DNA of 64,000 nt from Escherichia coli (GTDB lineage: Bacteria; Pseudomonadota; Gammaproteobacteria; Enterobacterales; Enterobacteriaceae), in NCBI RefSeq assembly GCF_003334385.1, contig NZ_QOWN01000021.1; one strand, 5' to 3'. Each line of letters starts with the position of its first letter. Position 1 is the stretch's first letter. Shown piece by piece: positions 48,668 through 49,548 of this stretch. The position numbers and the translations under genes were made by a program. Below the pieces are notes generated by a model, which ran no database searches, had not been told where the DNA came from, and was given only the letters and a program-made list of their open reading frames with translations.

Positions 48668-48759
48668 TGCAAAATCCTGCTATTTGATTTGTATGAGTGA
48701 TAAGTGTAACGCCGAATAATCGTCGTTGGCGAATTTTACGACTCTGACAGGAGGTGGCA

Positions 48760-49548
48760 ATGCTGGTTGCCGCAGGACAGTTTGCTGTTACATCTGTGTG
48801 GGAAAAGAACGCTGAGATTTGTGCCTCGTTGATGGCGCAGGCGGCGGAAAACGACGTATCGCTGTTTGTCCTGCCGGAAGCATTGCTGGCGCGCGATGAT
48901 CATGATGCAGATCTATCGGTTAAATCAGCACAGCTGCTGGAAGGCGAATTCCTCGGACGTTTACGGCGAGAAAGTAAACGTAACATGATGACGACAATTC
49001 TGACGATTCATGTTCCTTCAACGCCGGGGCGCGCATGGAATATGCTGGTGGCACTTCAGGCAGGAAACATCGTCGCCCGTTATGCCAAACTGCATCTCTA
49101 TGATGCATTTGCCATTCAGGAATCACGCCGTGTTGATGCTGGTAATGAAATCGCTCCGTTACTGGAGGTGGAAGGGATGAAGGTCGGTCTGATGACCTGT
49201 TATGACTTACGCTTTCCAGAGCTGGCGCTGGCACAGGCATTACAGGGAGCTGAAATCCTGGTACTTCCTGCCGCCTGGGTTCGCGGGCCGCTCAAAGAGC
49301 ATCACTGGTCAACGTTGCTTGCCGCTCGTGCGCTGGATACCACCTGTTATATGGTGGCGGCGGGGGAGTGCGGGAACAAAAATATCGGTCAAAGCCGGAT
49401 TATAGATCCCTTTGGCGTCACCATTGCGGCAGCGTCAGAAATGCCTGCACTCATTATGGCGGAAGTGACGCCCGAACGTGTGCGTCAGGTGCGCGCGCAA
49501 CTGCCCGTCTTAAACAACCGTCGCTTTGCGCCGCCGCAATTATTATGA
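48760..49548 (+). CDS. ybeM: Nitrilase-superfamily carbon-nitrogen hydrolase YbeM (appears intact here)
   Basis: 262 aa from ATG 48760 (AGGAGG 5 nt upstream); candidate catalytic triad Glu (FVLPE), Lys (YAKLHLYD), Cys (GLMTCYD) all present. Confidence 0.8.

Follow-up and report, generated by a model that had tools for sequence, protein, structure and literature searches.

The ybeM locus of a non-K-12 Escherichia coli and the single-base deletion that sets the K-12 copy apart

In Escherichia coli K-12, ybeM is annotated as a pseudogene, and the question is therefore raised of what the ybeM frame represents in a strain in which nothing appears to interrupt it. Such a frame lies on contig NZ_QOWN01000021.1 of the E. 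coli assembly GCF_003334385.1, within the stretch of 64,000 nucleotides (the window) that was analysed here. A first-pass annotation, made from the letters alone, had described it as a full-length gene of the nitrilase superfamily. From the sequence comparisons given below, positions 48760-49548 very probably hold an intact and functional ybeM, encoding a 262-aa cytosolic amidase, to which mammalian Nit1 and yeast Nit2 are the predicted eukaryotic orthologues. The gene is real, was read correctly by the first-pass annotation, and is already known and annotated. An intact ybeM is to be expected in most E. coli other than K-12, and its presence in the window matters little beyond annotation hygiene.

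The reading frame and the K-12 pseudogene

The six-frame list of open reading frames contains an uninterrupted plus-strand frame at 48754-49548, which amounts to 264 aa from GTG 48754 or 262 aa from ATG 48760 and has neither stop codon nor frameshift before the TGA that ends at 49548. The sequence and the list of frames bear out the continuous, undisrupted frame of 262 codons from ATG 48760 that had been claimed, as well as its near-ideal AGGAGG ribosome-binding site, which is found at 48749-48754, 5 nt from the ATG. The coordinates 48754-49548 given in the first-pass annotation hold for the end of the frame; position 48754 is that of the GTG, and the RefSeq start is instead ATG 48760. The GTG is in frame, two codons 5' of ATG 48760, and overlaps the Shine-Dalgarno sequence. 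Met1, encoded by ATG 48760, is kept in all orthologues aligned (n = 14) and is followed, two residues on, by the first conserved beta-strand, for which NitFhit and Nit2 have aligned counterparts. The features of the frame that bear on the comparison with K-12 are as follows.

48760-49548, plus strand: ybeM coding sequence (262 codons and TGA), predicted deaminated glutathione amidase, Nit1 orthologue, branch 10 of the nitrilase superfamily
48749-48754, plus strand: Shine-Dalgarno sequence AGGAGG, read from the sequence, with a 5-nt spacer (TGGCA) before ATG 48760
48857 and 48869, plus strand: sites of the K-12-specific T>C missense changes V33A and V37A, respectively; the window keeps the ancestral T at both
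48959, plus strand: G of codon 67, present in the window, deleted in K-12 (equivalent to about 658230 of NC_000913.3) and in other genomes with the deletion allele
48985-48990, plus strand: two adjacent in-frame ATG codons (Met76-Met77), the start of the 187-aa 'MMTT...' product of K-12, which is not a conserved start

The Shine-Dalgarno sequence varies among strains: in some of them, including some of B2 type, AGGAGGAGG is found in place of AGGAGG at the equivalent of 48749-48754. This is a 3-bp duplication of AGG, exemplified by ampC_0069 (at about 340-363 of its locus sequence) and by other hits with a match length of 1104 bp.

In K-12 MG1655 (NC_000913.3), the gene has the same neighbours (pagP-cspE-crcB-ybeM-tatE-lipA), with 4 differences from the window in 4.1 kb. 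The K-12 copy is b4581, a pseudogene of 788 bp at 658031-658818 that PGAP labels 'frameshifted', in agreement with the statement in the first-pass annotation that K-12 carries a pseudogene or a 187-aa product; the latter length agrees arithmetically, since the MMTT sequence starts at residue 76 and the remainder of the protein is exactly 187 aa. Pairwise alignment of ybeM between K-12 and the window gives three differences, namely two T>C missense changes and the loss of one G. Thus, the K-12 copy is without G 48959 and carries V33A and V37A, whereas the window's allele is intact. Past the deletion, the K-12 frame reads LYGEKVNVT and then reaches a stop codon; a different frame still encodes the last 187 residues undamaged, which accounts for the old 'MMTT...' annotation of K-12. 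The disrupted frame of K-12 is absent from the window, in which G 48959 is present and all 262 codons are open. ybeM of the window looks unusual only against K-12, because K-12 has lost one G in codon 67.

Over 24 kb, the window is matched best, at 100% identity, by isolates obtained from wastewater, pigs, cattle and humans, not by K-12. Derivation of the window from a K-12 revertant was considered and rejected, as both K-12 missense SNPs are absent and the best 24-kb matches are wild isolates. By these comparisons, the window is that of a non-K-12 E. coli with the ancestral ybeM allele, and no discrepancy is left once the 1-bp deletion has been located.

Protein family, catalytic residues and substrate

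By exact-sequence look-up, the protein is residue-for-residue that of RefSeq WP_000959109.1 and of Swiss-Prot YBEM_ECO57, the YbeM protein of E. coli O157:H7 (262 of 262 residues), the gene for which is found in the same position between crcB and tatE. YBEM_ECO57 is the UniRef representative, is named 'Deaminated glutathione amidase', and is present on at least 1000 contigs, being the commonest E. coli allele. RefSeq records with 100% identical DNA have the coding sequence at the same coordinates, as WP_000959109.1, deaminated glutathione amidase.

Two family profiles cover the protein from end to end. Pfam PF00795 (CN_hydrolase) matches at full length as a single domain (E = 9.4e-41, residues 3-245 on positions 2-255 of a 256-position model), and with NCBIfam NF033621, 'deaminated glutathione amidase', the score of 452 bits exceeds the cutoff of 355 (E = 5e-136, residues 3-261 on positions 2-260 of 260). 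Full-length matches of this kind argue that the open reading frame is far more than a product of chance. All other nitrilase-family NCBIfam models score far under their cutoffs with this protein, among them NF007757 (the YafV type, omega-amidase/amidohydrolase), at 58 bits against 249, by which the protein is not an omega-amidase of YafV type, and NF043013 (a second deaminated glutathione amidase model, of Yersinia/Proteus type), at 82 bits against 500.

Among PDB entries, the sequence is matched best by the Nit domain of Caenorhabditis elegans NitFhit (1EMS, 3e-29, query residues 5-255) and by yeast Nit2 (4H5U, 1e-26). The LPE, xKLHLxD and CYD motifs of YbeM align motif to motif with both of these proteins, which places the putative catalytic residues in the following codons.

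48877-48879, plus strand: Glu40, in the LPE motif (residues 38-40) aligned to NitFhit and yeast Nit2; invariant in 14 orthologues
49087-49089, plus strand: Lys110, in the YAKLHLYD motif (residues 108-115); invariant in 14 orthologues
49120-49122, plus strand: Glu121, the second Glu and fourth member of the Glu-Lys-Glu-Cys tetrad, in IQES aligned to LMES of NitFhit; invariant
49198-49200, plus strand: Cys147, the candidate nucleophile, in the GLMTCYD motif (residues 143-149) aligned to CYD of NitFhit and yeast Nit2; invariant

The structure 4HGD is of a C169S mutant of yeast Nit2, matching the motif of the nucleophile Cys147. An AlphaFold2 model made from the 14 orthologues has a pTM of 0.81 and a mean pLDDT of 75, the confidence being low at the C-terminus, in two loops and around residues 115-124, where Glu121 lies. 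The model is predicted to adopt the alpha-beta-beta-alpha sandwich fold. In Foldseek its matches have a probability of 1.00, headed by Nit2 of Kluyveromyces lactis and Saccharomyces cerevisiae (TM 0.80-0.84) and followed by mouse Nit2, yeast Nit3 and NitFhit; further structures of the superfamily are matched as well. The full-length nitrilase-superfamily hydrolase of the first-pass annotation is therefore recovered in the end-to-end profile coverage, the gapless alignment of orthologues and the aligned catalytic residues; its Glu-Lys-Cys residues are found in LPE, YAKLHLYD and GLMTCYD, and the comparison with Nit-family structures that it had proposed gives yeast Nit2 as the best fold match. 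By domain, catalytic set and predicted fold, the protein is assigned to the nitrilase (carbon-nitrogen hydrolase) superfamily, and by its score in the curated model and its orthology it is classed as a YbeM-type deaminated glutathione amidase, the activity being predicted.

The chemistry that would follow from knowledge of the superfamily and of Nit1 is a metabolite-repair reaction (EC 3.5.1.128). Its substrate would be deaminated glutathione, N-(4-oxoglutaryl)-L-cysteinylglycine, which is formed in a side reaction when transaminases act on glutathione. Activation by Glu40, with help from Lys110 and Glu121, would let Cys147 attack the amide bond of this compound; a thioester would form between Cys147 and the 4-oxoglutaryl moiety, with departure of cysteinylglycine, and water would then hydrolyse the thioester, so that 2-oxoglutarate is released. 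The E. coli YbeM protein itself is said to have been assayed in the work of Peracchi et al. that appeared in PNAS in 2017. For the eukaryotic relatives, the hydrolysis of deaminated glutathione by Nit1 and yeast Nit2 is stated in the parts of PMC5714238 that cite Peracchi et al. 2017, and also in parts of PMC7815647.

The assignment of this substrate to YbeM draws on the curated family name and the Swiss-Prot name, together with the reported assay. An alternative is that the enzyme is active with its main substrate in E. coli being another alpha-keto-acid amide or one of omega-amidase type. Substrate specificity is not readable from sequence by the methods used here. The eukaryotic Nit1, Nit2 and NitFhit proteins that have been characterised share the fold (4H5U, 4HGD, 7ELF and 1EMS, TM 0.80-0.84) and the same Glu-Lys-Glu-Cys set with YbeM, but have about 25-28% identity to it; they are about 290-340 aa in length and include insertions and N-terminal extensions, and the Nit proteins of worms and flies are fused to Fhit, whereas YbeM is a minimal protein of 262 aa. 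The low score in NF043013 also leaves room for a different substrate. Against these points, NF033621, the cutoff of which is passed, was built for exactly the YbeM family, and the name given to the identical sequence in Swiss-Prot is that of a deaminated glutathione amidase. The nearest structures are of yeast Nit2, which is of Nit1 type, and not of mouse Nit2 or yeast Nit3. The latter two, together with E. coli YafV, share superfamily, fold and catalytic residues with YbeM and are likewise metabolite-repair amidases for a transamination by-product, but YafV is a separate paralogue, and its substrate is 2-oxoglutaramate, as opposed to the tripeptide-derived deaminated glutathione predicted for YbeM. 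YafV is described as a 2-oxoglutaramate amidase in the part of PMC8711792 that cites Peracchi et al. 2017, and YbeM is far from the cutoff of the YafV-type model. A main substrate other than deaminated glutathione is accordingly regarded as distinctly unlikely, and a deaminated glutathione amidase remains the preferred reading of YbeM.

Alleles, selection and expression

Of 5,426 complete E. coli genomes, all but one (5,425) contain the ybeM locus. The intact allele, scored as an exact match (in the band of at least 99%) to the 61-mer of the window centred on 48959, is found in 3,626 complete genomes, and the deletion allele, scored as an exact match to the corresponding K-12 60-mer, in about 860 of 5,424. 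The sample behind these counts is biased, as complete genomes in RefSeq are rich in laboratory strains, and the figures are to be read as orders of magnitude. An intact ybeM is the common state in E. coli, and is routinely annotated.

A 60-mer with both K-12 missense SNPs is matched in about 365 genomes, essentially all of them K-12 derivatives; as megablast needs an exact word of 28 bases, which both SNPs break in other alleles, this is a count of the K-12-type allele and not evidence that the gene is absent elsewhere. The deletion without the K-12 SNPs is present in roughly 500 genomes, from human, bovine, poultry (chicken) and plant (cucumber) sources. Two of these genomes were checked, that of G1/2, isolated from the faeces of a healthy human, and that of 26561, from a case of bovine mastitis, and each has the identical deletion, is without both SNPs, and is annotated as frameshifted; over 24 kb, G1/2 matches the window at 100.0% identity, with one base fewer. 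Because natural isolates carry the identical lesion without the K-12 SNPs, the single-G deletion is a naturally segregating null allele that is older than the isolation of K-12, and not a laboratory artefact. Recurrent slippage in a homopolymer was considered as the source of the deletion and rejected, as the deleted G is outside any run (GGAC[G]TTTAC). For this reason, shared descent or recombination is the best explanation of why G1/2 and 26561 have the same lesion.

ybeM has also been inactivated independently of the single-G deletion. In E. coli O166:H15 JNE21-003, the IS21-family element ISEc62 (istA/istB) splits the gene near codon 232 (locus coordinates 3389-5483). PGAP still calls the resulting 241-aa truncated fusion in this strain a normal 'deaminated glutathione amidase' coding sequence. 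K-12 and hundreds of natural isolates live with the null allele, and many conditions therefore do not require the enzyme. A null allele that is widespread in nature, together with an independent IS knockout, would suggest that this metabolite-repair enzyme is conditionally dispensable, but it is unlikely that this pattern is biologically meaningful. The proposal that ybeM is lost repeatedly or persistently because the repair of deaminated glutathione is, in part of phylogroup A, neutral under some conditions or even carries a cost is likewise unlikely; if it were true, the window's allele and near-isogenic relatives with the deletion (e.g., G1/2) would form a natural pair for determining the fitness value of metabolite repair. 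K-12 itself would be a natural null for the repair of deaminated glutathione, which is relevant to metabolomics of glutathione and of transaminase side products in K-12. The K-12 pseudogene serves as a neutral insertion site (PMC7242477); in strains other than K-12, ybeM would not be neutral as a site of integration.

Selection was assessed from eight intact E. coli alleles, chosen to represent the spread of identity within the species (98.3-100% over a 1.1-kb query); all are 789 nt in length and share their start and stop. Among them, 23 sites vary synonymously and 8 non-synonymously, and pairwise pN/pS is 0-0.22, about 0.1. The window differs from O157:H7 ybeM by 9 substitutions and from that of O104:H21 by 6, all of them synonymous, with the same protein accession. 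Thus, purifying selection keeps ybeM wherever it is intact, across phylogroups. The K-12 line has acquired two missense and zero synonymous changes since the frameshift, as expected of a decaying pseudogene and of further decay after the deletion.

These values bear on a second alternative, that the gene is dead or silent in spite of its intact frame in the window, having become a cryptic pseudogene by loss of expression or by an inactivating missense change. K-12 and other deletion strains do without the gene. A scan for consensus promoters and terminators over 48200-50000 found no convincing plus-strand sigma-70-like site 5' of ybeM, and its counts were not above those of shuffled sequences. 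In Salmonella, a translational fusion to ybeM was very weakly expressed (bioRxiv 10.1101/2020.09.09.289983). However, the protein is the commonest allele of the species, its catalytic residues are all intact and invariant, and a pN/pS of about 0.1 across phylogroups is a sign of continuing purifying selection, which is not expected of a dead gene; the two missense changes and no synonymous changes of K-12 after its frameshift provide the contrast. In strain CFT073, moreover, a ChIP peak of NsrR lies beside ybeM, and NO lowers the expression of the gene, i.e., its transcripts respond to NO and NsrR (PMC5320621). It is thus very unlikely that the intact frame belongs to a dead or silent gene.

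The gene order is pagP, cspE, crcB (minus strand), ybeM, tatE and lipA (minus strand), and the crcB and tatE flanks are the same in all records examined. The best sigma-70-like site of the scan, the counts of which did not exceed those of shuffles, is on the minus strand at 48760-48733 (TTGCCA-16-TAAAAT, 10 of 12 matches) and fits the divergent crcB; it overlaps the start codon and Shine-Dalgarno sequence of ybeM. The spacer between the divergent crcB and ybeM is 92 bp, and the two genes probably share or compete for a control region. Between ybeM and tatE (49549-49676) there is no convincing intrinsic terminator, just a weak 5-bp stem at 49526-49539, and ybeM and tatE may be co-transcribed. 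An Rfam scan of 47000-51000 (E <= 1) gave nothing in ybeM or in the crcB-ybeM spacer, and no fluoride riboswitch. The one real hit of that scan was the cspA thermoregulator RF01766 at 47836-48278 on the plus strand (124 bits, against a gathering threshold of 78), which spans the 5' untranslated region and coding region of cspE and is followed by a strong intrinsic terminator at 48250-48274.

An out-of-frame ORF of 56 aa, beginning MFLQRRGAH, is present inside ybeM (49010-49180, plus strand). A 29-bp fragment of ybeM that encodes exactly MFLQRRGAH, as well as other out-of-frame fragments, caused filamentation when overexpressed from pBAD24, and full-length ybeM expressed from the same vector did not (PMC6206680). 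Filamentation by the fragments is probably an artefact of overexpression.

Orthologues and the internal methionines

A search of 5.8 billion proteins found orthologues of YbeM in Escherichia fergusonii, Citrobacter, Salmonella, Leclercia, Kosakonia, Enterobacter, Silvania and Scandinavium, uniformly of 262 aa. Fourteen of them, from eight or more genera, align over 262 columns with zero gaps, and Met1, Glu40, Lys110, Glu121 and Cys147 are invariant. No conserved block that functional orthologues possess is missing from the protein of the window, either in the profiles or in the alignment of 14 orthologues, which disposes of one of the two objections that the first-pass annotation had raised to its own reading.

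The other objection was that translation might begin at the internal methionines. Residues 1-75 are conserved to much the same degree as the rest of the protein (30 of 75 columns invariant, or 40%, compared to 81 of 187, or 43%), and within E. coli they have 9 synonymous sites and 4 non-synonymous codons, i.e., mostly synonymous change. Met occupies position 76 in 2 of the 14 orthologues, and at position 77 there are 8 with Met and 6 with Leu; because of this, the 187-aa internal start is not a conserved feature. That only Met76/Met77 is used, leaving the first 75 codons untranslated and giving a 187-aa product, is suggested by the two adjacent in-frame ATGs and by the historical K-12 annotation (its 187 aa agreeing arithmetically), but such a product would be without Glu40, a required catalytic residue of the superfamily, and with an unconserved internal start, a conserved N-terminus, an invariant Met1 and a strong Shine-Dalgarno sequence before ATG 48760, the idea is scarcely credible. 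Translation from ATG 48760 remains the preferred reading.

Large clusters (343-945 members) of shortened 'YbeM' proteins of 205-215 aa are found in public protein collections (P0054, P0063 and P0071), probably from gene callers that restart 3' of the deletion in the deletion allele. A few other calls are too long, at 277-443 aa (P0016, P0017 and P0033), and one of these has the TatE domain PF02416. The over-length and under-length entries are likely to be annotation artefacts, and could mislead comparisons that are based on length.
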